Source: Escherichia phage SKA64. Taken from it: 64,000 nucleotides of DNA. The stretch lies in the sequence record OM362897.1; one strand, written 5' to 3'. Positions 32,433 to 48,897 of the stretch are shown here, one piece after another (position 1 is the stretch's first letter; each line of letters begins with the position of its first letter). The notes under the pieces are model-generated. The model did no database searches. It saw nothing but the letters and a program-made list of their open reading frames with translations, and had not been told where the DNA came from. The position numbers and the translations under genes are program-made.

Positions 32433-35400
32433 TTAGGTTGTTGGCACATCTACTACTGGCGTTGGGCGAATAACCGCAGTATTACCTACAGAAACATTAC
32501 TGGAATCATTAGGTATGGTTTTAATTCTAACTCCAGCACTTGTAGGCGTTACAATTGGATCTGCAATGTCTATTTTAACTGGGTTAGTCCACGTATCATT
32601 ATCTTGATAAGGTGCACGAGTAATAACTGTGTCCAAATCTGCTCCACCTACGCCAGCACCAGGAATACGAATACGTGTCCCTGCTGACAGAGGGTAATGA
32701 TACAACCAAGAAGCATTTGTTGCTGTCCCGTTAGGAGTCAAGTTCTGTGTCAGGAAGGTATCTCCTGCCTGTGTAGCTCGAATACCGAAAGCTGGGATAT
32801 CTGGAATATATGCCCCACTTGTTGTTACAAGGAAGAACGTATTATCCGCCTTGACTATCATATCACCTTTGTCAAACTCTTTCCCTGTTGGGAAATGCAT
32901 TCCATCAATGTTTCGACTAGGATTAGGCTCTAAGTAATAAACTTTGCCCGTTGTCCCTACAATAGCTCCAATACCACCTGCGATATTGGTATACATATTA
33001 GCTTCAACATTACAGTTGACACGATGAATATCCGAGTAACGGCAACGGCTCCACTGTGGACGACCAGTAACCATCGTCTTGCCATCTGGGTAACAGTTTA
33101 CGTTAACCATTTCAAGAACAGATTTTTCTCTACGGAAGAATCCATCATAAAATGTCCCTGGACCAGATTCAGGTTGACCAACACAATCGAAGATATTACA
33201 GGTGATGTTAGACATTGAAAGCCAAGAAGCTATACCGAACAACTGCAATGCAGCGCAACGAATATTTTCAAAGCTAACTCTGTTTTCATAACCTGGCCCA
33301 GCGGAAACTCCCGCAAAAACACGCCCAGTTTTGGTGTGAATGTTACGAACAGAATAGTTAAAGCATGGGTTTGAAGGTCTACCCTGTGCCGGAACTACCG
33401 GATTACCCTCTTCGTCCAGAACTGCGTTAGTTCCCCACTCCAAATAAATCATACGGATATTACTTGCAAGTGTGCTACCGTCTGTTTTAGGCTCTCCGTA
33501 AACACCGTCAATCGTAAAATCTTTACTTCCATACATTACAACTGCGCCAGTTGCCAAACCTGTCCCAACAGATACGGTCTGGTCTGGATCGCCATGAATG
33601 TTTTCGATAGAGATATTACGACCAACTTCTACGTGGACAATCTGACGACAACGTTTTGCAAAAACGTTACGAATTGTAATATTCTTACAATATTGATCAT
33701 CAGGGATTCCGTAACCATATGGTCCTTTACCAGCTACACCGATACCGATACCCCAGTTGGACAGAGGAATAGGAGCGTTAGTCCCATCGATATTAGACAG
33801 GTAAATATTCTCAATCACACAACCATCGTCATAATGTTTATTGATGACGTTCAGTTCTATTGCATCACCTTGCATGTCCATGAAGGTAAGGTTACGGAAG
33901 ACACCACGTGTTACTGGTTCCCCTGTTCCTTGTTGAAGGATGCCATACAACCCGTTTTTAAAAGTACAGTTATCAATTTCAAAAGTACCTGATATTGGGT
34001 TGCCTTGGAATACCAAGCTACCAACTTGACCTGCGCGAGGAGCACCGTCCCACAAACAATCGAACATGCGCACAGCACCACCCCAATACATAACACGAGA
34101 GTTACGGAAAGTTGTGCCTTCTACTGTAGCATTTTGCACACGATAGTCGCGTTGACCACGGAACACACCCCCACGCAAAGTGATACCTTGAATATCAAAA
34201 GAGCTTGTCGTGAAAGTCATATCGCAACCGTAAGCATCGAGAATCTTGCTTTTCGAAGCTTTTGCTGCTAACAGTGCCGCCTGGAAAGCTGCTTCTGGTG
34301 TGGTATAGGTAGTTGTATTGTTAGCAAATTCTGACAAGTAGACAACATCGAATAAATCGTTGTATGTTCCACCACGAGGGGTTAACAGTCCTTCCGTATT
34401 AGTTAGAACCCATGCGTTTGGACCTAATCCACCGCTTGTCTCTAATGTGTCAGAGGCCAAAATACTTTTTGGTAAACTTCCAGCCCAACGATAACGACCA
34501 GCACCACGTCCAATCGTCTGATTTTTAGCTGTCAGGGTTACGTTATTACCAAAGCTTGTAGGCAAATGGACAAATTGTCCACGTTCAACAGCCAGTGCGG
34601 AAAGATCTACAGATCCCCCAGAATAAGTCATTACTCCAGAAACAGACAAAGATGTTAAAGTTCCTGTGATGTTAGGAGGTAATGTGTAGGAAGACTGTGC
34701 TACCGGATCATACAGAGCTTTAATCCCTGTTAACGATTGCCCTGCTGTTGCGTAAGCCACCTCATCATCTAACAAACCATATTTACGAGCAATAGTTTGC
34801 AGAGGGACTTTATCCATGCTTTCTGTTAGTTCTTCCGTTTTTGTTTCTAAACTAACAAGACGGTTCTCTAGATTAGGATCTGTATCTGCTGAAGCTACGA
34901 TTTTACCAATATAAGCGAAAAGCTTGTTTGGCAGTCCTGTTGCAGGATCGTGTCCCAAAGGTTCAGATAAGATGATCTTACTATCTTCTATACGGAAAGC
35001 TTCCCCCAGAACCTGAATAACACCATTGATCGTAACAATAGCACTATCAAAGATGTAAGGAGGACTGATTACTGTTTCATAACCAGTTGCACCAGAATAT
35101 ACCCAAGGTGTGACTTCTGTTGCCAATTGTTCTGTCTTCAATCCCCACAATACCCAGTTGTTATCTCCTACTGGAGTACCTTGCATAGGGATTGGGTTTA
35201 CCAATGTAGCATTAGGAGCATAATAATAACCGCTCAATACCCCATTCTGAAAATAACGAAGTTGGTTAAAAACTGTTTCGTTTGTGCCTTGCGCCCAATC
35301 CAATGGGCTTTTAAAGAAAAAGTTGTCAACAAGGGCTTTTCTCAGGGTTGGTATCAACCCTGATTCTGTTTCAATACTCTCTGTAGCACTTCCATTAATA

Positions 35401-35486
35401 ACATCATGGAGTTGGTTAGATGAGAAAATAACCAGGTCTACGCCCTGTTCGAGAGACGTTGCTGGATATGTTGGGAATGTTGCCAT
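32433..35486 (-). CDS. tailspike protein (1017 aa), probable beta-helix enzymatic spike
   Basis: Size, Asn/Gly/Thr/Val-rich repetitive composition, position among receptor-binding genes; no catalytic motif assigned. Confidence 0.45.
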   Translation of the reverse strand: MATFPTYPATSLEQGVDLVIFSSNQLHDVINGSATESIETESGLIPTLRKALVDNFFFKSPLDWAQGTNETVFNQLRYFQNGVLSGYYYAPNATLVNPIPMQGTPVGDNNWVLWGLKTEQLATEVTPWVYSGATGYETVISPPYIFDSAIVTINGVIQVLGEAFRIEDSKIILSEPLGHDPATGLPNKLFAYIGKIVASADTDPNLENRLVSLETKTEELTESMDKVPLQTIARKYGLLDDEVAYATAGQSLTGIKALYDPVAQSSYTLPPNITGTLTSLSVSGVMTYSGGSVDLSALAVERGQFVHLPTSFGNNVTLTAKNQTIGRGAGRYRWAGSLPKSILASDTLETSGGLGPNAWVLTNTEGLLTPRGGTYNDLFDVVYLSEFANNTTTYTTPEAAFQAALLAAKASKSKILDAYGCDMTFTTSSFDIQGITLRGGVFRGQRDYRVQNATVEGTTFRNSRVMYWGGAVRMFDCLWDGAPRAGQVGSLVFQGNPISGTFEIDNCTFKNGLYGILQQGTGEPVTRGVFRNLTFMDMQGDAIELNVINKHYDDGCVIENIYLSNIDGTNAPIPLSNWGIGIGVAGKGPYGYGIPDDQYCKNITIRNVFAKRCRQIVHVEVGRNISIENIHGDPDQTVSVGTGLATGAVVMYGSKDFTIDGVYGEPKTDGSTLASNIRMIYLEWGTNAVLDEEGNPVVPAQGRPSNPCFNYSVRNIHTKTGRVFAGVSAGPGYENRVSFENIRCAALQLFGIASWLSMSNITCNIFDCVGQPESGPGTFYDGFFRREKSVLEMVNVNCYPDGKTMVTGRPQWSRCRYSDIHRVNCNVEANMYTNIAGGIGAIVGTTGKVYYLEPNPSRNIDGMHFPTGKEFDKGDMIVKADNTFFLVTTSGAYIPDIPAFGIRATQAGDTFLTQNLTPNGTATNASWLYHYPLSAGTRIRIPGAGVGGADLDTVITRAPYQDNDTWTNPVKIDIADPIVTPTSAGVRIKTIPNDSSNVSVGNTAVIRPTPVVDVPTT

Positions 35487-35834: not shown

Positions 35835-36380
35835 TTATTCCGTCGGTAATGTAGGCCAATCTATAGTGTAAGGATAATCTTTTTGAAGCGGAACACGATT
35901 TAGTTTAACCACATAAACTTGAAGATTTTTAAGATAAGCTAATTCTTCTTCAGTAGCCATTTCTAAATCTTTAGCATACTGTAAAGGTGTTATAAGTGCT
36001 ACCGCTGTTTCTTGTAAAGAGCGAATTTTTGCACTAGCTTGTGTCATCAACTCTTCACGGGAATACTCTTTATCCTTAAGAGTCAAAGTTTCTAAATCCA
36101 GAACCTTGTTTCTAATATCCTCAAAAGTGTCTATATTAAAGTCCACTTGTGCTATAGAAAGATCTTCAGGGCAAAGTAATGTAGGATCAGTGTTCCAAAA
36201 CACAATACGATTTTGATCGTCAAAAACGACTTTCATTTTATCGTTATTGAATTCTGTGCTACGTAAATCATACCAATCGTAACCTTGATCGCAACGAAGA
36301 AAAAGAATGTTCTCTACTTCTACCAATTCTTTTAGTTCGGGATCTTCGGGAATATATCTTTTAAAATTTGTAAATATCAT
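35835..36380 (-). CDS. hypothetical protein (181 aa), possibly tail fibre assembly
   Basis: Position downstream of fibre-like gene. Confidence 0.35.
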   Translation of the reverse strand: MIFTNFKRYIPEDPELKELVEVENILFLRCDQGYDWYDLRSTEFNNDKMKVVFDDQNRIVFWNTDPTLLCPEDLSIAQVDFNIDTFEDIRNKVLDLETLTLKDKEYSREELMTQASAKIRSLQETAVALITPLQYAKDLEMATEEELAYLKNLQVYVVKLNRVPLQKDYPYTIDWPTLPTE

Positions 36381-37442
36381 TTAGCCTCCGATATCGTACC
36401 AGTTTCCGTTAACGTTGCGCTGGAGGCGTTTGAAATAAACCCCACCGATGTTATCCGCAGAACTACGCCCTGTTTCCTGGACAATAATACCAGAAAGAAC
36501 ATAACCAGAAGAACAGATATAAGTCCAAGAAACTTCGTTCCCTGGTGGATAATACACACCTTGGCTAGTGTAACGAATATCTCTTACAAAGGTTCCGTTA
36601 GCATAATTGTAGTTGTTTGTAATCTGACTTTGATGATTACTTTCTACATTGTTTATACGGGAAGAGAGGTTGCTGTTAACACTATTCAGGTTGTTTTGAA
36701 CAGTGTTAATATTCGTCTGCAATGTGTTCTGAAGAGAAGTCAAACGAGAATTCAGATAATCTAAGCGAACTAAAGCATTTCCGTTAGAAGTATCTTGTCC
36801 ACTGTTTGATCTTGGACTGTCTATTAGAACATAACCTGCATCATATAAACGAACACCTGCTGATACACTACCTGTGCTAGGATTTCTACGATAAATATAA
36901 AGCTGACCTCCACTTTGGTATTCGGCAGAAATCTCACCATTAGTTTGTCCTGCAAAGTTTTTGAAAAACAGTGTCGCAGGATCTGTTGTGGAAGTACCGT
37001 TAACATAAACATCACCACCATAAATAGCACCACCCGCATCACGTTTTACCAACACGTTTGGTGTTACTGTTGAACTAGTGGCATCTGTAATGTTTGCCGA
37101 CAAGTGATTATGACTGTTATCTTGAACTTGGATAGATAAAGTAACTTCTTTATTACCATTCCAAGTAGCCTCACCAGTAGCATCACCTGCCATTGTAATC
37201 TTAGTTCCAACTAAAGGCAAGTAAGTATCAGGTAAAGTTGGAAGAAAGTCATCCACCAAATAGCGAATCCATAAACCGATATTATTAAGAATCCAGTTCA
37301 TTTCTTCGCAAGTCATGATTTGACCATAATCCATACCAACTGTGCGGATGGTTTCTTTAGGTCTAATTTTGTTTGTGTTTAAAGTTCCTGGGAGCGTTAC
37401 AGTTTGTGTAGCCCAGTCAGGATAATATATTGGCTTCGCCAT
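36381..37442 (-). CDS. tail fibre-like protein (353 aa)
   Basis: Asn/Ser/Thr-rich with heptad-like LNSRLTSLQNTLQTNINTVQNNLNSV segment. Confidence 0.4.
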   Translation of the reverse strand: MAKPIYYPDWATQTVTLPGTLNTNKIRPKETIRTVGMDYGQIMTCEEMNWILNNIGLWIRYLVDDFLPTLPDTYLPLVGTKITMAGDATGEATWNGNKEVTLSIQVQDNSHNHLSANITDATSSTVTPNVLVKRDAGGAIYGGDVYVNGTSTTDPATLFFKNFAGQTNGEISAEYQSGGQLYIYRRNPSTGSVSAGVRLYDAGYVLIDSPRSNSGQDTSNGNALVRLDYLNSRLTSLQNTLQTNINTVQNNLNSVNSNLSSRINNVESNHQSQITNNYNYANGTFVRDIRYTSQGVYYPPGNEVSWTYICSSGYVLSGIIVQETGRSSADNIGGVYFKRLQRNVNGNWYDIGG

Positions 37443-37451
37443 TTAAACTCC

Positions 37452-38081
37452 TTAATCTATTTGCTTGAGAAGCGTACACATGCGTCCTGTTTCATCCCCA
37501 GTAGATTCCATGTACAGGGAACCTAAACCACCAATACCATGAGGCGGTTTGGTAGCATAATAAGAACTAAAACCAAAAGCTGATCCTGCTTTTGCTCCAA
37601 GACGGTAGCTACTAATAATAGGGAAAACACTTAGCAACTGCTCTAAAGCTTGATCAGATTGAAGACACAGGTTGTAGAAAAACACATCAAAGGTTTTATT
37701 CAAACCTACGTAAGTATTAAGCGTTTCACGCTCTGTTCCTGTGAAACGGGCGAAGATATCAATTATGTCACCACGAGTCCCCGATGAGGCTACGCGGTAA
37801 GCCCTGATTTTTAATATTGTTCTATACTCTTCATCATCAGAGCCATTACGTTCGATCCCCATTTCTTCTCCTAAGATATCTAGGTATTTGCCTGTGGCTG
37901 TGGAGATCAAGCGGTGTTTAGCAAGATAGATCATTGCCTGATCTATCTTTTGCTTTTCACTGGATACGATGTAGAGGAGCTTGACAATGTTAGGAGAAGA
38001 TTTAAAATCTTCAATCAGAAGGTTTTTAACATCTTCATTGATACTGGCCCAAGTTGTTACATGGTCAACACTCACTGCCAT
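37452..38081 (-). CDS. baseplate/tail structural protein (209 aa)
   Basis: Position in baseplate region. Confidence 0.35.
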   Translation of the reverse strand: MAVSVDHVTTWASINEDVKNLLIEDFKSSPNIVKLLYIVSSEKQKIDQAMIYLAKHRLISTATGKYLDILGEEMGIERNGSDDEEYRTILKIRAYRVASSGTRGDIIDIFARFTGTERETLNTYVGLNKTFDVFFYNLCLQSDQALEQLLSVFPIISSYRLGAKAGSAFGFSSYYATKPPHGIGGLGSLYMESTGDETGRMCTLLKQID

Positions 38082-38083
38082 TT

Positions 38084-39571
38084 TTACACTCCATACTCGT
38101 AAGAAATGTTATCAAGGTCAAAAGAAGGGACAACATTATAAGCAGGAACTATATTATTCTCTGTATATTTACTGTCATCCTCAGTATTAAGTTTAACATA
38201 AACACGAAGAGAAGTCAAGCGTCCAAAAGCAAGTGCTGCATAAATAACACCTTTGATTTGATCGTTCGTTACTGAAGAACCTAACTCAAAGTAAGCTTGC
38301 AGGTTTTGTAAAGCTTCTACGATGTTTTGTTTTTCTGTTCCACTTAAAGTTGTTCCGTTGACAGTTTGATAAACAAGTTTTACGGAATACGTAGCAGAAG
38401 CACCAGGAGAAAAACGAATAATTTCTTGTCCTCCGTCTTCTGTTGTAACAGTTATGTTGGTTGTTCCATGTGTCAAACTGTTGATTGGTTTAGTTTTGTA
38501 AATAACTTCAGCAACTTCTTCAGCACTCCCTCCATAAACTATAGTCTGGAAAGTCATAGCTGGAGCATGTTCTTGATCATGTAACGTAGGGTTATCATAA
38601 ATCTTCACCTTAGTAACACCATCTGTAAGTAGCAGAGCTTTCACAATAGCTGCTCGTGTCCCTGCGTTAGCTTCATCAACGTTGTCATTGAAACGAGAGC
38701 GGAATTCTGCGTCTGTCTCAACATCTCGACCAGGAGAAAATGAATAGAAGTTACCACTGTCAAGATAACCTGTAAAGGTAGAAGATATCCCTGTAATAGA
38801 CTCCACACCAACAGGATTGTATCCTTTCTCTGCTGCAACTACCGGAATCTCACTCCACTTGGTTCCAACCGGAACACTAGCATAAAATTTAATGGGAGTT
38901 ACCAGTCCCACTGGCGTATCACTGGTTAAAGAAGTAAAACCAACTGATAAGTTACCCGAATCAGAAAATACAAGACTACGATCAGCTTCTGTTAAATTCG
39001 CCTTGATAAAAGTTTCAAGATCTGTTATAAATGTAGAAGAACCAGGTGCAAGTGTTTTACTGTTTAGTCCTCCGTCTACCGCACTTTGTGCATAAAAAGT
39101 AATATTTGGAACACCTGTAGCAGTTGCATTAGCACGAGAGATTTGATAAGCTGCAATCTTAGCATTCAACATAGTTGGTGTGCTAACATAGTAGTTCATA
39201 TCACTATCAGAGTTGAAGTAAATATCCGTGCCTAACTCATAAGTCCAAGCTGCTTTGTTATTACTCTTAACATAGGCATAACCTGTACTTGCTGCTGCCC
39301 CTGCTCGATAGAAACCGCGTTTAGAAAAGATTTCGTCAAGATAAATACCTTCTGCACCATCCAGTGTTTGAGTATTATAAACCCCTTGCATACCTTCCCA
39401 CAATGTGTAATCTGTGTATGCAATTATTCTAAACAGTTGTCCGATCACAGTATCTTCCGAAGTGGCTGCATCTGCACCAAATGTGTTTTTTACTGCTGTC
39501 ATGTAGTTGTTTAAAACATCGTCAAAAGTCGGGATTACAAATCCCGCATCTGTCAAACCATATTCGTCCAT
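38084..39571 (-). CDS. baseplate wedge-like structural protein (495 aa)
   Basis: Size and position. Confidence 0.35.
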   Translation of the reverse strand: MDEYGLTDAGFVIPTFDDVLNNYMTAVKNTFGADAATSEDTVIGQLFRIIAYTDYTLWEGMQGVYNTQTLDGAEGIYLDEIFSKRGFYRAGAAASTGYAYVKSNNKAAWTYELGTDIYFNSDSDMNYYVSTPTMLNAKIAAYQISRANATATGVPNITFYAQSAVDGGLNSKTLAPGSSTFITDLETFIKANLTEADRSLVFSDSGNLSVGFTSLTSDTPVGLVTPIKFYASVPVGTKWSEIPVVAAEKGYNPVGVESITGISSTFTGYLDSGNFYSFSPGRDVETDAEFRSRFNDNVDEANAGTRAAIVKALLLTDGVTKVKIYDNPTLHDQEHAPAMTFQTIVYGGSAEEVAEVIYKTKPINSLTHGTTNITVTTEDGGQEIIRFSPGASATYSVKLVYQTVNGTTLSGTEKQNIVEALQNLQAYFELGSSVTNDQIKGVIYAALAFGRLTSLRVYVKLNTEDDSKYTENNIVPAYNVVPSFDLDNISYEYGV

Positions 39572-39813
39572 TAGTCATCCTCTTTGGTAGATTGTGATCT
39601 GCCCCAGCGTAAATCAATAAGATTTTTCATGAGGCGAGAAGGAGTTATCATGAAAACAAAAGCCCAACCCATCCATTCAGGAATTTCTTTTTCTATTCCT
39701 AAAAAGATAAACATGCCTGTCATAACCGACATGCCTACAGCGTTCCAGACTTTCGTAGAACTGACTTTATTATCAGGATATGTACAGAACATACCTATTA
39801 AAAATTTTCTCAT
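39571..39813 (-). CDS. small membrane protein (80 aa)
   Basis: Two hydrophobic segments and charged C-terminus. Confidence 0.4.
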   Translation of the reverse strand: MRKFLIGMFCTYPDNKVSSTKVWNAVGMSVMTGMFIFLGIEKEIPEWMGWAFVFMITPSRLMKNLIDLRWGRSQSTKEDD

Positions 39814-40154
39814 AGTGCGTTCTCATTACTTTTTAAATCACGATATACAGCTAATTCCCCAAGGTCTACAGAACCCGCTGAATGCACAAGTACAGCAGCA
39901 CTAAGACTAATGGCAGTAGTACCTGGGGCAATATCAGCAGGTAGGGAATACGCCCTTTGCGTCTCCTTATCATAGATAACCTTATACCCACCCAAATCCA
40001 CACCAATCTGGACAATGGTGTACGCGATAGCTGCAACGTAGAACCATTCGTTCAGTGTAAATCCGAAGAAGAACCGACTGGCACCATCAGCCGCAGCGGT
40101 CCCGACGATAGGAGAGGCTTTAAGGATCTCATTCTTGAAGTCTAACTCAATCAT
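39810..40154 (-). CDS. hypothetical membrane protein (114 aa)
   Basis: Hydrophobic central region. Confidence 0.4.
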   Translation of the reverse strand: MIELDFKNEILKASPIVGTAAADGASRFFFGFTLNEWFYVAAIAYTIVQIGVDLGGYKVIYDKETQRAYSLPADIAPGTTAISLSAAVLVHSAGSVDLGELAVYRDLKSNENAL

Positions 40155-40201
40155 AAAAACTCCAGTTTAAAGCGGGTCGTCCTTGACCCAAAGTTGTTAC
40201 C

Positions 40202-42751
40202 CTACGTTCGTGAGAACCCAAAGTTGGCTTCCATTTCCACCAGATAAGTACCAGCAGTACGCTTGAACACACCGATTTTACCTGAAGTCACCGCAGTGGT
40301 GTATAAAGGTGTCGCAATGACTCTGCCATCATCTGTTACAATTGTAAATGAGTAGCGACCGCTAGCGTCTGTGTAGACCCACACAGTAAACCCGACACCA
40401 ACGAAGTTAGTGGTCGTAATATCACCGAGTAAAGTCCAGTCAGTTGGTTCAGCGCCCATCCATGTACCAATGGCCATTCTGCCATCACTTGCTACACCAA
40501 CAAGAACAGCGGTCCCAGACAGCGAGTCCCAGTTCAGTGCAACGTAGGTGTTTAGGCCAAGACCAGACTTGACGTATACTCTGCCTACCAGTGTTTGTTG
40601 GTTAATATAAGCATCAGACGTCATTGCCCCAGCAGAGCCAGAGAATACGTTAGACAGCACATGGTCATCAAACTGGTTCCCGTCAGAGATAAAGCTAGTT
40701 GGAGCACTAGACTGGGAGATTGCTAAACGTGTCATCGGAATGTTGATACCATCGGTTCGCACACTGCCAAACTTGAGAGCGGGATACCATACATTTGGTA
40801 ACTGACCGCCATTAATTATGGTTATAAGATTTAACCCCTTACGCAGGCGTCCAGCATAAGTTGTAAGGGTCTTAGATCCTCCAAGATATGATGAGGCCAG
40901 CTTACCTACAGCAAATTTAGCGTATGAGTTTATTTTAGTATTCCTTTCAGAATATGATGGGTCAGATTCATTCAGCTCGATGCCAGCAGGTGCAATAACC
41001 CTTAAGTGGTTGTAATCCCCAACCTTACCTGCACCACTCCAAGGCTCCAGCACTGTCAGTGTCATATCCTCCTCCTCACACCATACAAACGTGTTGAATG
41101 TAATATTCTCACCATTTGTTGGTGCCAGAGGTATATATCCAAAGGTATTCAGCTTCGGAGTACCACTAGCTTTATGGTAATGAGGACGGAGGTGATTCTG
41201 TGATGGATAAGTCACGGCATCCCAATAGTTCTCTACCACTGACGTGTTCATCATATCACCCGGACGTACACGGCGAACGTACTTCTCACCAATGGTCTGC
41301 ATGAACATGGAGCCACCCATAACCCTCTGTCCCAACTCTTGTGGGTGAGTAGTATCGTACTGAGGTTCCTTCTTCACGTAGTAATAATCCATGCCTTGCA
41401 TGTTGATGTTAGACATCTCGGTAAGGTCTGGACCTAAGTTGAAGTAGTCGATACCCAATGTCTCGCACATCTGACGCTTGGTAGCTCCCTCGAAACCAAT
41501 ACGCGACCAGTCGTTGTCGTTAACAGTCACGATACCAACCGTGCATCCATAACCCCATGCCTTGCGTACAAACATGTCAATCTGATCTCGGTATGTCGCC
41601 ATGTCCTGACTTGAGTCATTCCACCCCATCGCTAAGAGACAGACGCGAGGTGCTTTGGCCCCATATCGAATGTTACCGAAGAACCCTCGGTCAAAGTTAC
41701 GGTATCCCCACCCATCGGATAACTTAGCTCCTGATAGAGACGCGTTATAAACTTGGAAGATAGCCTCACTAGACCAGCGTGACTGGACCGTGTTCATAAG
41801 CCACTGCCAGTGAGCACACCAAGAGTGTGAACCTCCAGCCAGACTGTGGTTGTAGTCTATCGGAGCAGCCAAGTCTCGATTGGAATCCAGAGGAGGGGAA
41901 CTCCAGTTCTGTTTACCCCAAGCACCGTCAGTGATGGAGTCACCAACAATGCCAATAGTACCATCTTCATACCTTTGAGAACGAACAGCTTCTAATAGAA
42001 CGGATTTAACAGAACGTCCATTACCATTGGTTGCCTTCTCTACGTCAAACAGCATGTCACCACCGTAGAACTGGTTCTTGACGATAAGTTTACCTTCGCC
42101 AACGAACTTACGGACATCATCATCAGGCAGCAGGTTTACACGGATAGTTACATCACGAGGGATGTAAATCTTACCGGCAAACGCATAGGCTGCAGCACGG
42201 TTATCAACCGAAGTGTTAAAGTTGATGTTCGGTACATAATAGACGGACTCAGCTCCTTCGAACTTGAAGCGTCCCCTCAGCATTTCTGTACGCAACGTTG
42301 CATCACCAACATTAACCCACGCGCCTAATCCAATTCCACCAGTGCTATCTGGAGTTGAACCAGCAGCTACTGTTTTGGGAAATTCGCCCCCCCACGTATA
42401 GCATTGACCGCCAGCAATGTGCCAAACAGCATCTGTTGCCTTAGTGACTGTAGCCCCTTCTTCAAAACTACCATCAACAAGAGTTAACCCAGCCTCGGCA
42501 AGACTACGACGCCACTGTTCACGATCATTAAGAAGATTGTTATTCAACTCTTCCTGAACAGTATTACCATTTGAGGATTGTATTAAATCTGCTCCATCTG
42601 TATCTTTCAACTGGGTGGCTAAAACCACCCCAGTGTCAGTAAGAAAGTTGGAAACTGTGCTTTTAACAGTTTTATCAGGTTGATCTAAAACCAGGTAATC
42701 TGAACCATTAACTTTTGATGTTTCGGGTAAATTAGTAATTGTAGTTGACAT
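40202..42751 (-). CDS. tailspike protein with SGNH/GDSL esterase domain
   Basis: GIVGDSITDGAWG (GDS block I) and downstream DTTHPQ (DxxH block V); N-terminal anchor region. Confidence 0.6.
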   Translation of the reverse strand: MSTTITNLPETSKVNGSDYLVLDQPDKTVKSTVSNFLTDTGVVLATQLKDTDGADLIQSSNGNTVQEELNNNLLNDREQWRRSLAEAGLTLVDGSFEEGATVTKATDAVWHIAGGQCYTWGGEFPKTVAAGSTPDSTGGIGLGAWVNVGDATLRTEMLRGRFKFEGAESVYYVPNINFNTSVDNRAAAYAFAGKIYIPRDVTIRVNLLPDDDVRKFVGEGKLIVKNQFYGGDMLFDVEKATNGNGRSVKSVLLEAVRSQRYEDGTIGIVGDSITDGAWGKQNWSSPPLDSNRDLAAPIDYNHSLAGGSHSWCAHWQWLMNTVQSRWSSEAIFQVYNASLSGAKLSDGWGYRNFDRGFFGNIRYGAKAPRVCLLAMGWNDSSQDMATYRDQIDMFVRKAWGYGCTVGIVTVNDNDWSRIGFEGATKRQMCETLGIDYFNLGPDLTEMSNINMQGMDYYYVKKEPQYDTTHPQELGQRVMGGSMFMQTIGEKYVRRVRPGDMMNTSVVENYWDAVTYPSQNHLRPHYHKASGTPKLNTFGYIPLAPTNGENITFNTFVWCEEEDMTLTVLEPWSGAGKVGDYNHLRVIAPAGIELNESDPSYSERNTKINSYAKFAVGKLASSYLGGSKTLTTYAGRLRKGLNLITIINGGQLPNVWYPALKFGSVRTDGINIPMTRLAISQSSAPTSFISDGNQFDDHVLSNVFSGSAGAMTSDAYINQQTLVGRVYVKSGLGLNTYVALNWDSLSGTAVLVGVASDGRMAIGTWMGAEPTDWTLLGDITTTNFVGVGFTVWVYTDASGRYSFTIVTDDGRVIATPLYTTAVTSGKIGVFKRTAGTYLVEMEANFGFSRT

Positions 42752-42759
42752 TTTTACTC

Positions 42760-44913
42760 CTATATATAAAATTTTTGTGTTGTTACTAAATCTTCTCCAG
42801 ATTTAGTGGCTAATGTAATTCCACTTATGGTGGCAATCTCAACATTTACCTGTTTAAGAGTGATATCCTGTAAATAAACGTTCAAAGGCACGTTACCCAT
42901 ATAGAAAACTTGGGATTGAGAATTAACTACCGTGATAGAATCATGCATTATTTGAGGATAGGCCCATATATATTGTGTAAGTCCGTCAAACTTATTGGCG
43001 TTCAACACTATATTACCTATAATCATTTTCCAAAGATACGTGCGGTAGTTTGATTCAGGATCAAAGCCATACAAAGGTGCAAGAGTAGCATCTGGAACAA
43101 AACCTGCAAGATAGTGAATATCAGAATATTCAAAACCTAATTTTTCATGTGGTATGGTAATTGCATCAAATGCTTTCATCATTTTACCTTCCAGAAGCCA
43201 GTCGTAACACTCTGAACAGTAAAAATCAAAAGCTTCAGGAATGTAGTAATCAGACGGAAAGTTAACTTTCTCCATCAAACCGTTGCCGATAATCGATGGT
43301 AAGAACGGAAGCAATGTTACTTTAGCTCCTGGGTAAGTTGCTCTAGTATCTGTTGCAAACTTTGTAACTCTTAATCCTAGTTTACGAGACAAAAACGCAT
43401 AGTATTCGTCAAACGGCGTTCCTGTTTTATAATTATCTATTGTTCCTGCATCTTGTGCAAATAAGCCAGTTTCTGTGTTGAATGCCAGTTTGGTAGTGTA
43501 ATCGTATATGCAAGGCATTTTACTTGCTGTATTATACCACCACCAAGGTTCACCAATTTGAATGACGACTGGAATGTTATTAGCTTGAGAAATAGATGCT
43601 ATTTTGTTAATAACATTTTGCAAATATTCCATGCCTTCGTCAATAGTTGGAGACAACACGTAACTAGGAGGCTTATACCCTGTTGCTGCAAGAGCATCGT
43701 TCCAATCATGCTGGACCCATTCAACAGGACAAACTGTGCTCATCAACTCAAAACTCAAAGAGTTCATTATTGTGTAGCCATTTTCATTAGCTATAGAATG
43801 GAAACTGTTAAGCCAAGCTTCTGTAGCCGGATTCAGGAAAACAGATCTATTTAAAGCCCAAGATGTTCCGTTCCATGAGAACTCATAATAGTGAGACATT
43901 CCGTTGTAATGGTTAATCATTCCACGATAACCTAGTGCATATGTATTATAAATAACTCTCTCTGGAGTCAGGTTATACATATCATCATAAGATGTGCACA
44001 TGCGAATATCATGTTCAGGCTGGACAAGGTTGCTGACTTTCATCATACTGTAACCAGAAGTAGGTTCAAGAAGAGTGAAAGTAAACCAAGCCTCTTGACT
44101 GGCAATAGGTACAATCTCTTCTATTTCTTCATACCTTGCTGTAATCAAAGAGAAGAAAATATTATCTACAGCATTCATATCCAAAGGAATATCATTATTA
44201 GGGCCAGAAAAGATATTACCAAAATCTAACTTTATTGTGGCTGTTTTACCATCTTCTGAAATATCTGAAGCGTAGAATCCTAAACTGACATAATGAACAC
44301 TTTTATCCAGGAGAGTTACAGTCAAAGTCGGCACCAAAGGTTCTTCTTTAAAACCTGGCATGTTTTGACTAATTTCCATTTTAAACCAAAGTTTCTCTGA
44401 ACTTAAATCTGTGTGAGGCAAATACCCAACACCTTTATGGTCATATTTGTCAACTGTGCTCCAGATAACCCCTGCCAAACCTGCTGTTGTTCTGTTTACA
44501 AATCTTGCAGTAAAAGAGTCTCCATGAGATACAATAGAACAACTTTCCGTTGCTTGAGAATCTATTGTCCAATACATAGGAGAGAACATTTTAACGTCTT
44601 TTGTAGTCCAAGTTATTGGAGTAGTATTTTCTTGGATAGTAGTTATAATACAATTGATGGTTGTTTCAACCATCATGTTATTTTGACTAATCCCTGAAAC
44701 TTGGAGGGAGAAGTTAAGATCTATTGAGTTCTTTGGTCGTTCAAATACTTCAACCACAATAGTAGCAGAATCAGCATCATCAGGGAACACAAGTGTTCCC
44801 GATTTTGCAATATAATCTCTACCAGCGACTGCTGTTCCGTCAACAGTCGTGTAGTTAAATGAACTCGCATTTACTCTCTTGTCTCGCGTGACAGTAAATA
44901 TAGCTTGTTTCAT
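42760..44913 (-). CDS. large tail-associated protein (717 aa)
   Basis: Size and position between baseplate and tailspike genes. Confidence 0.45.
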   Translation of the reverse strand: MKQAIFTVTRDKRVNASSFNYTTVDGTAVAGRDYIAKSGTLVFPDDADSATIVVEVFERPKNSIDLNFSLQVSGISQNNMMVETTINCIITTIQENTTPITWTTKDVKMFSPMYWTIDSQATESCSIVSHGDSFTARFVNRTTAGLAGVIWSTVDKYDHKGVGYLPHTDLSSEKLWFKMEISQNMPGFKEEPLVPTLTVTLLDKSVHYVSLGFYASDISEDGKTATIKLDFGNIFSGPNNDIPLDMNAVDNIFFSLITARYEEIEEIVPIASQEAWFTFTLLEPTSGYSMMKVSNLVQPEHDIRMCTSYDDMYNLTPERVIYNTYALGYRGMINHYNGMSHYYEFSWNGTSWALNRSVFLNPATEAWLNSFHSIANENGYTIMNSLSFELMSTVCPVEWVQHDWNDALAATGYKPPSYVLSPTIDEGMEYLQNVINKIASISQANNIPVVIQIGEPWWWYNTASKMPCIYDYTTKLAFNTETGLFAQDAGTIDNYKTGTPFDEYYAFLSRKLGLRVTKFATDTRATYPGAKVTLLPFLPSIIGNGLMEKVNFPSDYYIPEAFDFYCSECYDWLLEGKMMKAFDAITIPHEKLGFEYSDIHYLAGFVPDATLAPLYGFDPESNYRTYLWKMIIGNIVLNANKFDGLTQYIWAYPQIMHDSITVVNSQSQVFYMGNVPLNVYLQDITLKQVNVEIATISGITLATKSGEDLVTTQKFYI

Positions 44914-44921
44914 TTTACCCC

Positions 44922-47798
44922 TTACTCGGTAACGTCCACACTAATGTTTGCCATTGTCAAAACAGTAAGTGCAGGAATATTGCTCGAATCCAAAACAGGT
45001 AATGCATTTTGGGGATTAAGTTTTTTGTATAAAGCATACAACCCAAAACCACGTAACAACTCTCCAGCGTGGAAGCCAAAGAAGACTCCGTTATCACTGT
45101 CTGGTCTAGGAGCAGCACTCCAACAACCATTCATAACGTGATTAGGACCAAGAACAATATAGTTTTCCTGAATAAGTTCAAAACAGCGGTCTGCTACTAT
45201 TTTAATGTTAGGAATTTCTGAATCATATCCAGCCATCCCCATTATAGCACATCCCGCCATAAAGAGCGCAGACATGTGACTTGTAAAGTCATCTACAGGT
45301 GCAGCCACTTCTCCGTTGGGATAAAATATTGTTGGTGTTCTTCCTTCGTTGTTATCTTGGAACCACTTCAGGTAGTTGATCCAGTTTTTACAAACTGTTA
45401 AAAGTTTTTCAGGAACTTCGGCTCCTCGTCGCTTTAGTTCGTATACCGTATGACACGCACAGAAGAATGCTCGTGCTTCATAACCATCCCAAGCTTTATC
45501 GTTCCAATGATACATTGTGAACTCATTTTTGTTTCCATATTTATGAGCATCCCAACGATCCCAAACATAAGCTTGTGCCATTGGCCCAGGCATTACAGGG
45601 GCAAACTTATTATAAAACCACATTTGTGAATCATATAAAAAGTCTATACTGTTGTTCATACGAACCCAGTCAATATCTCTCCCTTTAAAACAATATAAGG
45701 ATGGGTATTGATAACCTGGGTAAGGAATACCACGCCAACCGTCATATAATGCTGTGTTAGGATCACTAATATTGGAAAATGGAATGATTCCTGGAGTATA
45801 ATTCAAACTGTCAAGTTTGTAGTCCAGTATTGTACAATCTCCAAGTTTTGCTGTATAAGGATTTTCAGATGAAACTGTAACCCTGAAATACATTGTGTAA
45901 TCATCGCCAGCGGCTGAAGAATACAAAGATGGGATATCGTTAACGCAATAAAAGTCGATTGCCCCTGTCAAGCCATTTGCAGGTTCAGAATCCAATGCAA
46001 TATTGATCTGATCAACAGCAGTCAGGTTTATTGACGAAGGTTTTGCCTCTGTGTCTTCGTGATTAGGTTGCCAAGTACTTAATTTGAAATCGGCAGGACT
46101 TAAAGCTTTAGTAACCCATGCAGAATTTGTTTTTTCTAACATGGCCCACCATCTCCAACCTGCGGAATCCGTAATAGTGATGTTAAAATCATCTGCGTAT
46201 GAACGATACGTAATAGATTTTAAATTGGCTGTTTTAGTTGGTGTTAACCAAAACCCAACAGTAAAACCACCATCTGAATCCATATTAGCAGAAACTATCT
46301 GATCACTATTTGTCCCAGCAATACCAGTTGCATATTTATATTGTATCACAGTATTGCTTCCCCAGTCAACAATAATTCTGGGTTCAGCAATAATATATAC
46401 ACCACCTCCAGGAGGTTCGGTGCGCATAAAACTAGATAAAGGTATATCCATCTTAGTCATATTAGCTGCACCAAGAGGTAAGCCACAACGATATGTCACT
46501 GTGTCTGTTTCACTCTTAGTTTTGCTTAATTCTAGCTCTGGACGGAAAAGAACACCTTCCCCTGCATCATCTACACCTTGAAACTCAATACGCAGTTTTG
46601 AATTCTGATCTACTCTGAACCAAACTGCCTGTTGTTCTAGAGTTGTTTGTGCTGAAACATCTTGGCGAATTACTGTGTATCCTAATTCGTCACGAGAATA
46701 TTTAGGTATTGCTGTAGATGGGTATGAGTAATCATACGAGATACCATCTGTAAAAGGAATTATTGCTGTCGTAGATCTACGGAAGAATTTATCAAACATA
46801 TCGATGTTTGAGTAGTCTTGACACAACAATAAAGAAGATTGCCAGCAAAGCCAGTATTTTCTCTCTCCTGTGATCTGATACATCAAGTAGTTTGCATCAC
46901 ACCACCACGTTTCAGCATCGGAAGCATTGTCTTGATAACCTAACTCTACCGGAACGTTTACAGGACGGTTATGCCACATCTCATTACGCTTAAGCAGATA
47001 TCCACCGTGTTCTACAGGGTTGCATGTAGCGTAGTTGAATTTATAGTCACCGTTCACAGAAGCGTTTTTAAGTTGCACTGTTCCATATTCTGCAAAGCTA
47101 TGCCCAGTGGATAAAATATTACCATCCCAATCAACTTTACGTCCTAGACGATCTATAATCCATTCAACGTCCCACTGATCTCCATATTCTTTCCAGTTGG
47201 TTGAACCATCTGGGTTAGTTGCATACACTGTTGCGTTAACAGAGTTCCAACCAAGATTACCATTGAAAGCAAACCAAGCTTTATCTAAGTATTCTCCCCA
47301 ATGTGGCGCACCTTTAGGAATAACAGTCCTTCCGTTAATCCAAGTCATCATGCTACCTTTGAACCCGCCGTGCGTAGGATACCCATCATCTGTGAGAGGG
47401 TAATGTGCTAAACGTGGTTCTTTACCATTGATGATCCAATTGGGACGATATTTAGCTGGAGGATCAGGAATAGGTTGGCCCCCGAAGAAGTGATCTATAT
47501 AGGCTTGCCAATACTTCTCGGCAGATTCAAGATATTTTTTATCCCCTGTAGCCAAATATGCATAAGCAAAACCAGTGATAAGCACAGATTGACCTTCGGT
47601 AGTAGCGTCACCGTTTGGTTGCCCTTCCTGCGCTGTCCAGTTAATAAAGTGTCTGTTGTTCGCCAATACGTTTTGTGGGTTGATAATGTAATGCTGAACC
47701 GTAGGATCTATGGTAAGCCCAGTATTTCTTTCCAAAAACTGAACCAACCCTTCAATCAACTGAAACGTGTTGTCAATATTGTGCTTAACTCTTGACAT
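44922..47798 (-). CDS. large tail-associated protein (958 aa), possibly polysaccharide-degrading
   Basis: Trp/Tyr/Asp-rich composition; no catalytic motif assigned. Confidence 0.45.
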   Translation of the reverse strand: MSRVKHNIDNTFQLIEGLVQFLERNTGLTIDPTVQHYIINPQNVLANNRHFINWTAQEGQPNGDATTEGQSVLITGFAYAYLATGDKKYLESAEKYWQAYIDHFFGGQPIPDPPAKYRPNWIINGKEPRLAHYPLTDDGYPTHGGFKGSMMTWINGRTVIPKGAPHWGEYLDKAWFAFNGNLGWNSVNATVYATNPDGSTNWKEYGDQWDVEWIIDRLGRKVDWDGNILSTGHSFAEYGTVQLKNASVNGDYKFNYATCNPVEHGGYLLKRNEMWHNRPVNVPVELGYQDNASDAETWWCDANYLMYQITGERKYWLCWQSSLLLCQDYSNIDMFDKFFRRSTTAIIPFTDGISYDYSYPSTAIPKYSRDELGYTVIRQDVSAQTTLEQQAVWFRVDQNSKLRIEFQGVDDAGEGVLFRPELELSKTKSETDTVTYRCGLPLGAANMTKMDIPLSSFMRTEPPGGGVYIIAEPRIIVDWGSNTVIQYKYATGIAGTNSDQIVSANMDSDGGFTVGFWLTPTKTANLKSITYRSYADDFNITITDSAGWRWWAMLEKTNSAWVTKALSPADFKLSTWQPNHEDTEAKPSSINLTAVDQINIALDSEPANGLTGAIDFYCVNDIPSLYSSAAGDDYTMYFRVTVSSENPYTAKLGDCTILDYKLDSLNYTPGIIPFSNISDPNTALYDGWRGIPYPGYQYPSLYCFKGRDIDWVRMNNSIDFLYDSQMWFYNKFAPVMPGPMAQAYVWDRWDAHKYGNKNEFTMYHWNDKAWDGYEARAFFCACHTVYELKRRGAEVPEKLLTVCKNWINYLKWFQDNNEGRTPTIFYPNGEVAAPVDDFTSHMSALFMAGCAIMGMAGYDSEIPNIKIVADRCFELIQENYIVLGPNHVMNGCWSAAPRPDSDNGVFFGFHAGELLRGFGLYALYKKLNPQNALPVLDSSNIPALTVLTMANISVDVTE

Positions 47799-48271
47799 TA
47801 AATAACTCCTGCTAAAACTAAGCTACCTGTCCAAGTTGCTCCATTATCATAACTGATAAACTCAAAAGTGTCTGTTGCACCTTGACGATAACTCAAAACT
47901 GGGGGGCGACCAAAACTCCATTTTACAGAAGAAGGCCATACGACTTTATTTGCACCACTTCCTTGACGCAAAGCTAAAGTAAAGTTTAAAACTGCATTTG
48001 TTGCTACTGGAATATTAGTAAAACTAATTGTGCACGTTGCAGAAGATAAAGTTGCAGAAAAATATTCTGCTGAACTAATATCTAATGCCAAGGTGCTAGT
48101 TACTGTTCCCCGTGCATTCAGACGGTTTCTAGTTACCCCTGCACCACTCAACAGCACTTTCAAAGAAGTTTTCTTTGTTATTCCAGCCTGATCTGTTACA
48201 AAGAAATCTGTATCAGACACAGAGGTTGTTTGTGTAAGATCAGAAATTTTGATCGTAGTTAAATCTGCCAT
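47798..48271 (-). CDS. baseplate protein (157 aa)
   Basis: Position; overlapping start/stop. Confidence 0.4.
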   Translation of the reverse strand: MADLTTIKISDLTQTTSVSDTDFFVTDQAGITKKTSLKVLLSGAGVTRNRLNARGTVTSTLALDISSAEYFSATLSSATCTISFTNIPVATNAVLNFTLALRQGSGANKVVWPSSVKWSFGRPPVLSYRQGATDTFEFISYDNGATWTGSLVLAGVI

Positions 48272-48897
48272 TACTCTTCTACTCCTGTCATAGCTGTTAT
48301 ACCGAAGTCATTGTTTGTAGCTAATGCATCACCTTTTTCGTTAACCATGATTCTTTCCACTGCTGACTCTGTAGACCATTCATTCCACCAAGTAGAGTAG
48401 GTATCACGTGGCAAACCAACAAAGTTGATAAAGCGATAAAGTCTATTCGAATTCTCAACAATACTGTAAGCTTCACAAATGATCGCTGCATTGTCTTCAC
48501 CAGCTTCAGGGTAAATAAACTCTTCAGAAGGTTGAGTATTGAATATAGATGTTACTGTATCTGCTCCAACTGTGACCATAACTGTCATTGAGTAATAACG
48601 TTGGTCCATATCATAAGCAGATTTATAACTGTTTATTGTATCTACGTAAACGTTTTTGGCAATCTCTGCTAAAAATATTCTATCTACAATATCTTTCTTT
48701 CTGGCAACACCAATAATCTCTTGTAAATAAGGAACACCGAAGTTAGTATTTAAAAACCACTCTCCACGATACGTGTTCAGAGTTATCCCAAGAGTTTGTG
48801 CTGCAATTTCTGTTCTGGTTGTGGTAAGGACCAAATCCCCATCGTCCATGATGAGGTCGTTGTTTGGTCCAAGTTTTAAGTCAAAAGGGATTCCCAT
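48271..48897 (-). CDS. baseplate protein (208 aa)
   Basis: Position. Confidence 0.4.
   Translation of the reverse strand: MGIPFDLKLGPNNDLIMDDGDLVLTTTRTEIAAQTLGITLNTYRGEWFLNTNFGVPYLQEIIGVARKKDIVDRIFLAEIAKNVYVDTINSYKSAYDMDQRYYSMTVMVTVGADTVTSIFNTQPSEEFIYPEAGEDNAAIICEAYSIVENSNRLYRFINFVGLPRDTYSTWWNEWSTESAVERIMVNEKGDALATNNDFGITAMTGVEE

Follow-up and report, generated by a model that had tools for sequence, protein, structure and literature searches.

The experimentally characterised prototype of the O-antigen deacetylases is gp63.1 (PDB 4QNL) of the N4-like podovirus G7C (Gamaleyavirus), which strips O-acetyl groups from the O-antigen of Escherichia coli 4s and leaves the backbone intact (PMC10743462, PMC6393563). 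This deacetylation is essential for G7C infection (PMC10743462, PMC6393563), and wclK mutants, i.e. cells with a non-acetylated O-antigen, resist the phage (PMC10743462, PMC6393563, 10.1101/542787). Tailspikes with LPS esterase or deacetylase activity are also found in the Shigella phages Moo19 (gp82) and B2 (gp48/49) and in Pectobacterium phage Possum (gp66); these are distant in sequence from the spike described here (about 14% identity by structural alignment), with other hosts and substrates. Escherichia phage SKA64 is a published Phapecoctavirus, and the paper describing it likened its tail spike to those of the podophages Pisces and Penshu1 without mention of an esterase.

We analysed a 64-kb window of the SKA64 genome; all positions are numbered along this whole window, and the tailspike parts, the cassette, the spacer and the small ORF downstream all lie on the minus strand. 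The tailspike gene (40202..42751, ATG start) encodes 849 aa, in agreement with the coordinates, strand and length given in a first-pass annotation made from the sequence, and its product is 100% identical to UKM17348.1 (SKA64 ORF 253, putative tail spike protein). The reading of the product as a tail protein was likewise upheld, all four Pfam domains of the G7C tailspike being present. The flanks match the gp052 locus of the genus Phapecoctavirus, with an N4 gp65-like protein of 717 aa on one side and baseplate wedge genes on the other. Taken together, it is highly probable that the protein is a receptor-binding tailspike in which a native Phapecoctavirus anchor carries a Kayfunavirus-derived body of the G7C gp63.1 type, likely an O-acetyl esterase. 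As such it is a new representative of an already described kind. The gene was in GenBank before, and its type of chemistry became known in 2017.

The first 150 residues (42302..42751) form the native part, as indicated by nucleotide and amino acid identity to the genus and by PF18668. Residues 1-92 are a genus-specific anchor, modelled poorly at 1-64 and helical at 65-86, and residues 93-150 are the Tail_spike_N domain (PF18668). These are followed by ‘domain 3’ of gp63.1 (Gp63_3rd_G7C, PF21562; residues 173-237, 42041..42235, E=1.1e-28), an SGNH esterase domain predicted from motifs, conservation and AlphaFold2/Foldseek (residues ~255-505, 41237..41989), a galactose-binding-domain-like module (G7C_GBD, PF21988; residues 510-663, 40763..41224, E=1.5e-44) and a C-terminal beta-sandwich domain (G7C_C, PF22245; residues 667-841, 40229..40753, E=1.4e-30). 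The four Pfam families scored above threshold and stand in the order found in G7C gp63.1, which shares the layout from Tail_spike_N through to the C-terminus. Residues 91-842 aligned with residues 100-843 of 4QNL (E=5e-255), with 52-54% identity over ~750 residues and identical catalytic blocks. Identity to gp63.1 falls from 75% in domain 3 and 67.5% in the SGNH domain to 53% in the galactose-binding-like module and 38% in the C-terminal domain, the part of the spike that diverges most.

In contrast to this shared body, the N-terminal ~90 residues of gp63.1 (1-93), a TSP1-type domain, are absent from the SKA64 spike, where the 4QNL alignment begins only at residue 91 and the Phapecoctavirus anchor stands instead; in native Phapecoctavirus relatives, a domain of the TSP1/gp63.1 type is encoded by the small ORF next to the spike gene. 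Therefore, the spike is a chimera with a gp63.1 body rather than a whole-protein orthologue of gp63.1. In G7C, gp63.1 is reportedly anchored by the N-terminal part of gp66, according to Prokhorov et al. in 2017. The two spikes also differ in their carriers, G7C being a podovirus and SKA64 a contractile-tailed, multi-fibre myovirus.

An AlphaFold2 model of the spike, built as a monomer although the spike is presumably trimeric by analogy with gp63.1, reached a pLDDT of 85.7 and a pTM of 0.79, with values mostly between 85 and 97 for residues 255-505. It superposed on 4QNL with a TM of 0.81 (Foldseek), and its second-best structural match was 9d84, the esterase spike gp48 of Shigella phage B2. 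The central domain was predicted to adopt a three-layer alpha/beta/alpha fold and matched the SGNH hydrolases 4rsh (TMt 0.76) and EstA 3hp4 (0.71), as well as TesA (5tid/1jrl/1u8u, TMt 0.67-0.69) and 1fxw, all with a Foldseek probability of 1.00, while the galactose-binding-like module matched CBM66 and galectins. Therefore, the objection that the protein might lack an SGNH fold, raised in the first-pass annotation as grounds for rejecting its esterase reading, fails.

The catalytic motifs point in the same direction. Block I had been recognised as GIVGDSITDGAWG and was recovered at residues 267-279; it reads GIVGDSITDG, with the predicted nucleophile Ser272 encoded at 41936-41938. The DTTHPQ motif, also proposed earlier and matching the DxxH pattern of block V, was found at residues 466-471 (Asp466, 41354-41356; His469, 41345-41347). 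To these we add two blocks missing from the earlier list, namely block II, NASLSG at residues 336-341 (Gly341 codon, 41729-41731), and block III, GWND at residues 376-379 (Asn378 codon, 41618-41620). NASLSG resembles the NASISG motif of TesA. In an alignment of 51 relatives with 25-80% identity, G270, D271, S272, G376, N378, D379 and H469 were invariant, D466 was conserved in at least 90%, and Gly341 was kept in most. The four-block SGNH match is far above chance, and from these motifs Ser272, His469 and Asp466 probably constitute the catalytic triad, with Gly341 and Asn378 as the likely oxyanion hole. Ser272 corresponds to Ser276 of gp63.1 by the 4QNL alignment offset only, and no mutant of gp63.1 Ser276 turned up in a literature search. 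Taken alone, the spike scored below the cut-offs of the generic GDSL families (PF00657, 19.4 bits against 23.6; PF13472, 15.3 against 32.9), and an NCBIfam search gave no matches; of the 51 aligned relatives, 28 matched PF00657 and 22 matched PF13472, with a best E-value of 2e-8. The reading of the spike as an SGNH esterase is thus supported by its motifs, by homology to 4QNL and by the predicted fold, and the activity itself is a prediction.

While the anchor is native, the remainder of the tailspike gene was acquired, making it a mosaic. Residues 1-157 show 85-92% amino acid identity to many Phapecoctavirus tailspikes, and positions 42800-42300 show 90% nucleotide identity to Ro121c4YLVW (BLAST). 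Locus and neighbours are shared with the tailspikes of Ro121c4YLVW (gp052), EC.P2 and PaulScherrer, whose first ~150 residues are 85-92% identical. Their bodies, however, are unrelated to that of SKA64 and have beta-helix, pectate-lyase or sialidase-type Pfam matches. The closest characterised relatives of the SKA64 body are instead the spikes of the kayfunaviruses Pisces (QEG09597.1; 80.6% amino acid identity) and Penshu1 (QEG09817.1; 67.8%), which differ in starting with a T7 tail-fibre N-terminal domain (PF03906). The corresponding figure for G7C is 53.6%. Identity to Pisces is 98-100% at residues 151-237 (98.5% in domain 3), 93.6% in the SGNH domain, 76% in the galactose-binding-like module and 71% in the C-terminal domain.

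Homology to Pisces spans positions 42366-40000 (BLAST), and we delimit a Kayfunavirus-type cassette of ~2.3 kb (40000..42300) consisting of the tailspike body with its stop codon, a spacer of 47 nt and 52 codons from the 5' end of a holin gene. Outside the cassette the window has a GC content of 0.395, whereas the cassette reaches 0.475 and the donor 0.53. In a three-way DNA alignment, the informative sites turn from recipient-like to donor-like within 42297..42377 (gene nt ~375-455, codons ~125-152), i.e. within the conserved C-terminal half of Tail_spike_N, and the native and donor BLAST blocks overlap at 42300-42366. The position of this left crossover zone corresponds to a recombination motif that ends the anchor domains of receptor-binding proteins (PMC10408124). 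The right junction (40000..40010) is an imperfect microhomology of 10-11 nt, reading CAGATTGGTGT in the window, CAGATTGGCGT in Pisces and CAGTTGGTGT in Ro121, and beyond it positions 40006-39567 show 99.3% nucleotide identity to Ro121c4YLVW (BLAST). A second genome (ENA contig L004) harbours the same cassette and scar, with 99.08% identity over 11.5 kb; among the 50,697 phage records searched, neither the junction nor the esterase body was found in any other Phapecoctavirus.

The right end of the cassette is marked by what the donor left behind. In Pisces and Penshu1, the spike gene is directly followed at its 3' end by a spacer and a holin gene of this kind, while in other Phapecoctavirus genomes the tailspike gene precedes a terminator and a complete gp051 of 102 aa, neither of which is present in SKA64. 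There, the donor-derived spacer (47 nt, 40155..40201), with the donor ribosome-binding site GGAG, stands in place of the native terminator CCCCGCTTCGGCGGGG and a native spacer of ~250 nt. A hairpin in the donor spacer (GGGTC...GACCC) was considered as a replacement terminator and rejected, since it folds no better than shuffled sequence (z = -0.14) and a terminator scan did not call it. Downstream lies a chimeric ORF of 114 aa (39810..40154), whose residues 1-52 (codons 39999-40154) derive from a T7-type class II holin (PF10746, E=7.5e-20 on residues 4-52) and whose residues 53-114 equal the native small ‘tail protein’ (Ro121c4YLVW gp051) from residue 41 to 102, as seen in a three-way protein alignment. 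The spacer and the 5' end of the holin show 96.3% nucleotide identity to the corresponding genes and regions of many kayfunaviruses. The in-frame fusion of a holin fragment to a native small ORF indicates both the type of donor and the direction of transfer. Neither Pisces nor Penshu1 is the direct donor; Pisces was rejected because its DNA is 56-76% identical over the last third of the spike gene, as opposed to 92-96% in the spacer and holin.

A Kayfunavirus-like (T7-like) podovirus very probably passed the module to this genome by recombination. A first crossover took place inside the shared Tail_spike_N sequence, and a second, illegitimate join at ~10 nt of microhomology within the donor holin gene left the holin fragment fused to the native small ORF. 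In the resulting spike, residues 1 to ~150 serve as the genus anchor that attaches it to the baseplate fibre network, and the G7C gp63.1-type module from residue ~150 onward, i.e. domain 3, the SGNH esterase, the galactose-binding-like domain and the C-terminal beta-sandwich, most likely binds an O-acetylated surface polysaccharide and removes its O-acetyl esters, as shown for G7C.

The scar ORF joins the transmembrane segment of a T7-type holin in frame to an anchor domain of the TSP1/gp63.1 type, of which two-thirds remain, and it is intact in two genomes that differ elsewhere by 1-2%. We doubt, though, that it is a functional gene rather than debris. Its expression would bring a tailspike-docking fragment into the membrane, so that lysis timing or tailspike assembly could be affected; alternatively, it could mark the native small ‘tail protein’ as dispensable. 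The ORF has its own ribosome-binding site and sits in the late tail operon.

By analogy with gp63.1, the spike very probably hydrolyses O-acetyl esters of a surface polysaccharide and leaves the glycan backbone uncut. The weak scores against the generic GDSL families would suit an SGNH domain that has become a catalytically inactive, lectin-like module, with the spike merely binding its receptor; set against the invariance of Ser272, Asn378 and His469, the conservation of Asp466, the presence of Gly341 and block sequences near-identical to those of the active gp63.1, such a module is very improbable. Cleavage of the backbone by another domain, in addition to deacetylation or instead of it, would be in line with the majority of tailspikes, which are depolymerases, and with the G7C relative Alt63, which has a depolymerase in place of the esterase body. 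However, Pfam and Foldseek revealed no beta-helix, glycosidase or lyase domain in the spike, the non-SGNH matches being lectin- or CBM-like beta-sandwiches, and gp63.1 itself spares the backbone, which together make this reading very improbable as well. As for the substrate, E. coli 4s supports growth of Pisces, Penshu1 and G7C, the three nearest characterised phages with such a spike, and was the isolation host of each; we therefore infer that an O-acetylated, O22-like O-antigen such as that of E. coli 4s is the likeliest candidate. The common host of the three phages partly reflects the isolation strain chosen by the groups concerned. A neighbour-joining tree built from the receptor-binding region places the spike next to that of Pisces, inside a clade bounded by Penshu1 and G7C. 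Still, since the galactose-binding-like and C-terminal domains are those most diverged from G7C, the substrate could differ, i.e. an active esterase might act on another O-acetylated O-antigen, a capsule or some other acetylated glycan on the surface of avian pathogenic E. coli. This would be in keeping with the isolation of SKA64 on QZJM25, an avian pathogenic strain for which no serogroup was reported, with the 53%/38% (G7C) and 76%/71% (Pisces) identities of the two domains, with the other substrates of the SGNH tailspikes of Pectobacterium and Shigella phages, and with a report that a single substitution in gp63.1, R421P, shifts the host variant adsorbed. On the other hand, the spikes of G7C and Pisces go with one host strain despite being only 53% identical, and the SKA64 spike is nested among those of 4s phages, its receptor-binding region being 84% identical to that of Pisces; we therefore regard a substrate other than the 4s/O22 type as possible, if somewhat unlikely.

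The direction of transfer is inferred rather than observed, and one could imagine that the module passed from a Phapecoctavirus to the T7-like phages, or that the N-terminus of the 114-aa ORF resembles a holin by coincidence. Yet the holin is a core gene of T7-like phages, placed right behind the tail fibre gene, and the fragment in SKA64, with its 96.3% DNA identity to many kayfunaviruses, stops at codon 52 in the myovirus, where it is fused to a native ORF. The cassette is also shifted in GC content upward, towards the donor, and no further Phapecoctavirus among the records searched possesses the junction or the esterase body. Reverse transfer or coincidence is accordingly extremely unlikely, and our data favour acquisition of the cassette by the myovirus from a Kayfunavirus-like donor.

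Since both esterase chemistry and the modular swapping of receptor-binding domains were well documented before, the finding is useful rather than surprising. What is new, from sequence comparison and modelling, are the boundaries of the mosaic, the holin scar, the probable type of donor and direction of transfer, the likeliest substrate and the predicted esterase identity of the SKA64 spike. The locus provides a clean, datable case in which a T7-like podovirus passed a receptor-binding enzyme to a myovirus of 150 kb, with both junctions mapped, and the “unique” tail spike of this therapeutic candidate can be re-annotated as a predicted O-acetyl esterase. The host range of SKA64 should then follow the acetylation of an O-antigen that is probably O22-like, and resistance would be expected both in mutants that lose the acetyltransferase and in rough mutants, as in G7C. 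As a contractile-tailed phage, SKA64 also lends itself to testing the idea that spikes with deacetylase activity carry virions processively through the O-antigen layer.

The spike gene of SKA64 (40202..42751, minus strand, ATG start) encodes a protein of 849 aa, and these coordinates match exactly those of the first-pass annotation, which had read it as an SGNH/GDSL esterase tailspike. Both motifs on which that reading drew were recovered, i.e. block I with the catalytic serine, GIVGDSITDGAWG, at residues 267-279 and the DxxH block DTTHPQ at residues 466-471. Two further SGNH blocks that it had not mentioned were found, NASLSG (336-341) and GWND (376-379); codon coordinates were confirmed by translation. 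Within an alignment of the spike family (51 sequences, relatives 25-80% identical to the query), G267, G270, D271, S272, D275, G276, G376, N378, D379 and H469 never vary, and D466 reaches at least 90% conservation.

Above the Pfam thresholds, the spike contains Tail_spike_N (residues 93-150), Gp63_3rd_G7C (173-237), G7C_GBD (510-663) and G7C_C (667-841); the GDSL matches across residues 266-476 are weak and sub-threshold, with PF00657 being matched by 28 of the 51 family members and PF13472 by 22. In PHROGs it matches phrog_21878 ‘tail fiber protein’ (E=7e-216), and its best PDB match is 4QNL (E=5e-255, residues 91-842), i.e. gp63.1, the characterised esterase tailspike of the N4-like phage G7C. 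An AlphaFold2 model built from the 51-sequence alignment (mean pLDDT 85.7, pTM 0.79) shows disorder only in residues 1-64, and a Foldseek search against the PDB again ranked 4QNL first (TM 0.81 both ways, 52% identity), with 9d84, an esterase spike from Shigella phage B2, in second place. The model's central domain matches a set of classical SGNH hydrolases, all at probability 1.00, namely 4rsh (TMt 0.76), EstA 3hp4 (0.71), E. coli TesA (0.67-0.69) and PAF-AH 1fxw, and an SGNH fold is accordingly predicted. The distal domains resemble lectin- or CBM-like beta-sandwiches, and neither Pfam nor Foldseek revealed a beta-helix or glycosidase domain in the spike. Despite the sub-threshold Pfam score of the spike alone, the motifs, their conservation in the family, the fold and the transitive profile matches together support the assignment as a predicted SGNH/GDSL esterase tailspike. 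By alignment offset to 4QNL only, Ser272, Asp466 and His469 correspond to Ser276, Asp470 and His473 of gp63.1. While the body is common to both proteins, the TSP1-type N-terminal domain of gp63.1 is missing from the spike, and we therefore classify the latter not as a gp63.1 orthologue but as a chimera that has the gp63.1 body. Sequence and model thus support a putative gp63.1-type esterase body on a Phapecoctavirus anchor.

The gene itself is deposited (UKM17348.1, ‘putative tail spike protein’ of Escherichia phage SKA64, protein 100% identical), and that it arose by recombination has already been pointed out in the literature. SKA64 was described as a Phapecoctavirus with a 152.4-kb genome, its isolation host being the avian pathogenic strain QZJM25; ORF 253 (2550 bp, 849 aa) was singled out as unique in the genus, with Pisces and Penshu1 named as closest, recombination suggested and the narrow host range tied to the spike (PMC10282059). 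Esterase or SGNH is nowhere mentioned for ORF 253 in that account. Its claim that ORF 253 lacks homology to any Phapecoctavirus is wrong for the first ~150 residues: residues 1-150 (42302-42751) are 85-92% identical to tailspikes of many genus members, and the Phapecoctavirus match is limited to gene nt 1-450 (~87-93% identity). The 10 kb flanking the gene is 97-99% identical to Phapecoctavirus genomes. No record of the phage collection covers at least 80% of the spike gene at the DNA level, because the SKA64 record is not among its entries, and in a 5.8-billion-protein database the Phapecoctavirus N-terminus and the esterase body are joined in only one cluster, that of this spike.

Pairwise BLAST against the native relative Ro121c4YLVW delimited recipient-type sequence at 42800-42300 (90%) and 40006-39567 (99.3%), and against the Kayfunavirus Pisces donor-type sequence at 42366-40000. 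From informative sites, the left crossover maps to gene nt ~375-455 (42297-42377), within the conserved C-terminal half of Tail_spike_N, a position that coincides with that of the conserved 44/95-nt motif ending RBP anchor domains, proposed as a recombination hotspot (PMC10408124). GC content is 0.476 at 40-42 kb versus ~0.39 on both flanks, the value for the acquired block (40000..42300; 0.475) lying between those of the recipient (0.395) and Pisces (0.53).

In contrast to the left crossover in conserved sequence, the right junction consists of a short microhomology. Downstream of the tail spike gene, Pisces and Penshu1 have a ~40-nt spacer and then a class II holin gene; the window keeps the spacer and the first 52 holin codons (92-96% DNA identity). 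Donor homology ends at an imperfect microhomology of 10-11 nt, CAGATTGGTGT (40010-40000), where native sequence resumes. The result is an in-frame fusion of 114 aa (39810-40154, minus strand) of holin residues 1-52, comprising a T7-type class II holin portion with its transmembrane segment and preceded by the donor ribosome-binding site, and residues 41-102 of the small ‘tail protein’ gp051. This junction is absent from every record of the phage collection. Just the 47-nt donor spacer (40155-40201) separates the spike gene from the fusion. Both Ro121c4YLVW (L003 4392-4640) and G7C (L001 5294-5309) have a GC-rich terminator, CCCCGCTTCGGCGGGG, after the spike gene; the window lacks both this terminator and ~250 nt of spacer. 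The terminator is probably the counterpart of the terminator-like motif that PMC10408124 describes downstream. The first 40 codons of gp051 are likewise deleted, leaving a remnant at 39810-39998, which suggests that gp051 is dispensable. Native gp051 (102 aa; L003 4083-4391, minus strand) is in essence equivalent to the N-terminal ~93 residues of CBA120 TSP1 (4oj5, E=3.6e-49) and of G7C gp63.1 (4QNL residues 1-93, E=1.6e-43), and has the appearance of a tailspike anchor domain, either free-standing or fossil.

Since T7-like phages carry the holin as a core gene in this position and it occurs truncated and fused in this myovirus, the transfer points from podovirus to myovirus. Among characterised phages, the spike body is closest to those of the Kayfunavirus podophages Pisces (82.8% nt identity for nt 386-1745 and 80.6% aa identity for residues 82-847) and Penshu1 (67.8% aa), followed by G7C (53.6% aa). 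Pisces itself was nevertheless rejected as the donor, as the 3' third of its spike gene shares 56-76% DNA identity, versus 92-96% for the holin flank; the nearest relative also changes from domain to domain.

The arrangement exists in at least two non-identical genomes: a metagenome contig from ENA (L004) matches the window at 99.08% identity along 11.5 kb (37261-48754) and encodes this spike protein as well as the fusion, with its junction unchanged. It differs by one mismatch in the acquired block, by none from 38000 to 42000 and by two from 42000 to 43500, versus ~1.5-2% divergence from 43.5 to 49 kb, a pattern that suggests recent sharing or recombination of the surrounding block. Three further metagenome contigs harbour esterase-body relatives (43-82% identity) on quite different chassis, i.e. 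a small myovirus-like baseplate cluster (L005) and siphovirus tail-tip clusters downstream of the tape-measure gene (L006, L007). Kagunavirus siphophages, e.g. Snoke, possess a more distant version (~30% identity).

Gp63.1 acts as an acetyl esterase on the O-antigen: the E. coli 4s O-polysaccharide (O22-type with extra glucosylation) loses its lateral O-acetyl groups, and its backbone stays intact; this deacetylation is essential for G7C infection, and mutants without O-acetylation (wclK-) or without O-antigen are resistant (PMC10743462, PMC6393563, bioRxiv 10.1101/542787). Strain 4s is the isolation host of G7C, Pisces and Penshu1, and the Penshu1 and G7C spikes share one ‘4s/O22’ RBP subtype (PMC10408124). 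A neighbour-joining tree built on residues 173-841 pairs the SKA64 spike with Pisces (83.7% identity), with Penshu1 as sister and G7C further out. Bracketing among these three makes an O-acetylated O22-like O-antigen the likeliest substrate, a prediction that we hold with moderate confidence, given that divergence is greatest in the distal domains, that the use of one isolation strain for all three phages biases the sample and that no serogroup has been reported for the SKA64 host.

By analogy with the prototype, the native N-terminus would dock the spike on the fibre and baseplate network, beside other receptor-binding proteins, and the GBD and C-terminal domains would bind the polysaccharide. 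His469 and Asp466 would activate Ser272 for attack on the acetyl ester, and the oxyanion would be stabilised by Gly341 and Asn378. Cycles of binding and deacetylation, as proposed for G7C (review PMC10743462), may then let the virion travel along the O-antigen layer, or pass through it, to a secondary receptor.

The phage is multivalent, carrying several receptor-binding proteins. A second large one (1017 aa; 32433-35486, minus strand) has an internal Tail_spike_N at residues 302-361 and is annotated in relatives as a colanic-acid-degrading protein; an 891-aa protein with RCC1-like repeats and Big_2 (27554-30229), a collagen-repeat fibre of 549 aa (30271-31920) and a short fibre with chaperone (35835-37442) are also encoded nearby. 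The neighbouring 717-aa protein (42760-44913, minus strand), conserved in the genus, combines a Calx-beta domain with PF23844 and PF23845 (E=7e-79), the N-terminal and TIM-barrel domains of a ‘non-contractile tail sheath’; relatives bear that label, which is odd beside baseplate J, wedge and sheath-initiator genes. Next to it, a conserved 958-aa ‘tail protein’ (44922-47798, minus strand) matches only PHROG tail families, with no Pfam match. At ~27500 the coding strand flips from plus to minus, together with a sign reversal of the GC skew, whose cumulative curve has its maximum around 26-28 kb; the switch probably marks a boundary of divergent transcription modules.

Beyond the deposited gene and its published recombinant origin, our analysis adds the esterase assignment, the exact junctions and the holin-fragment scar, as well as the donor type, the direction of transfer and a receptor prediction. 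The esterase module occurs in podoviruses, siphoviruses and myoviruses alike, and its function evidently does not depend on tail type.
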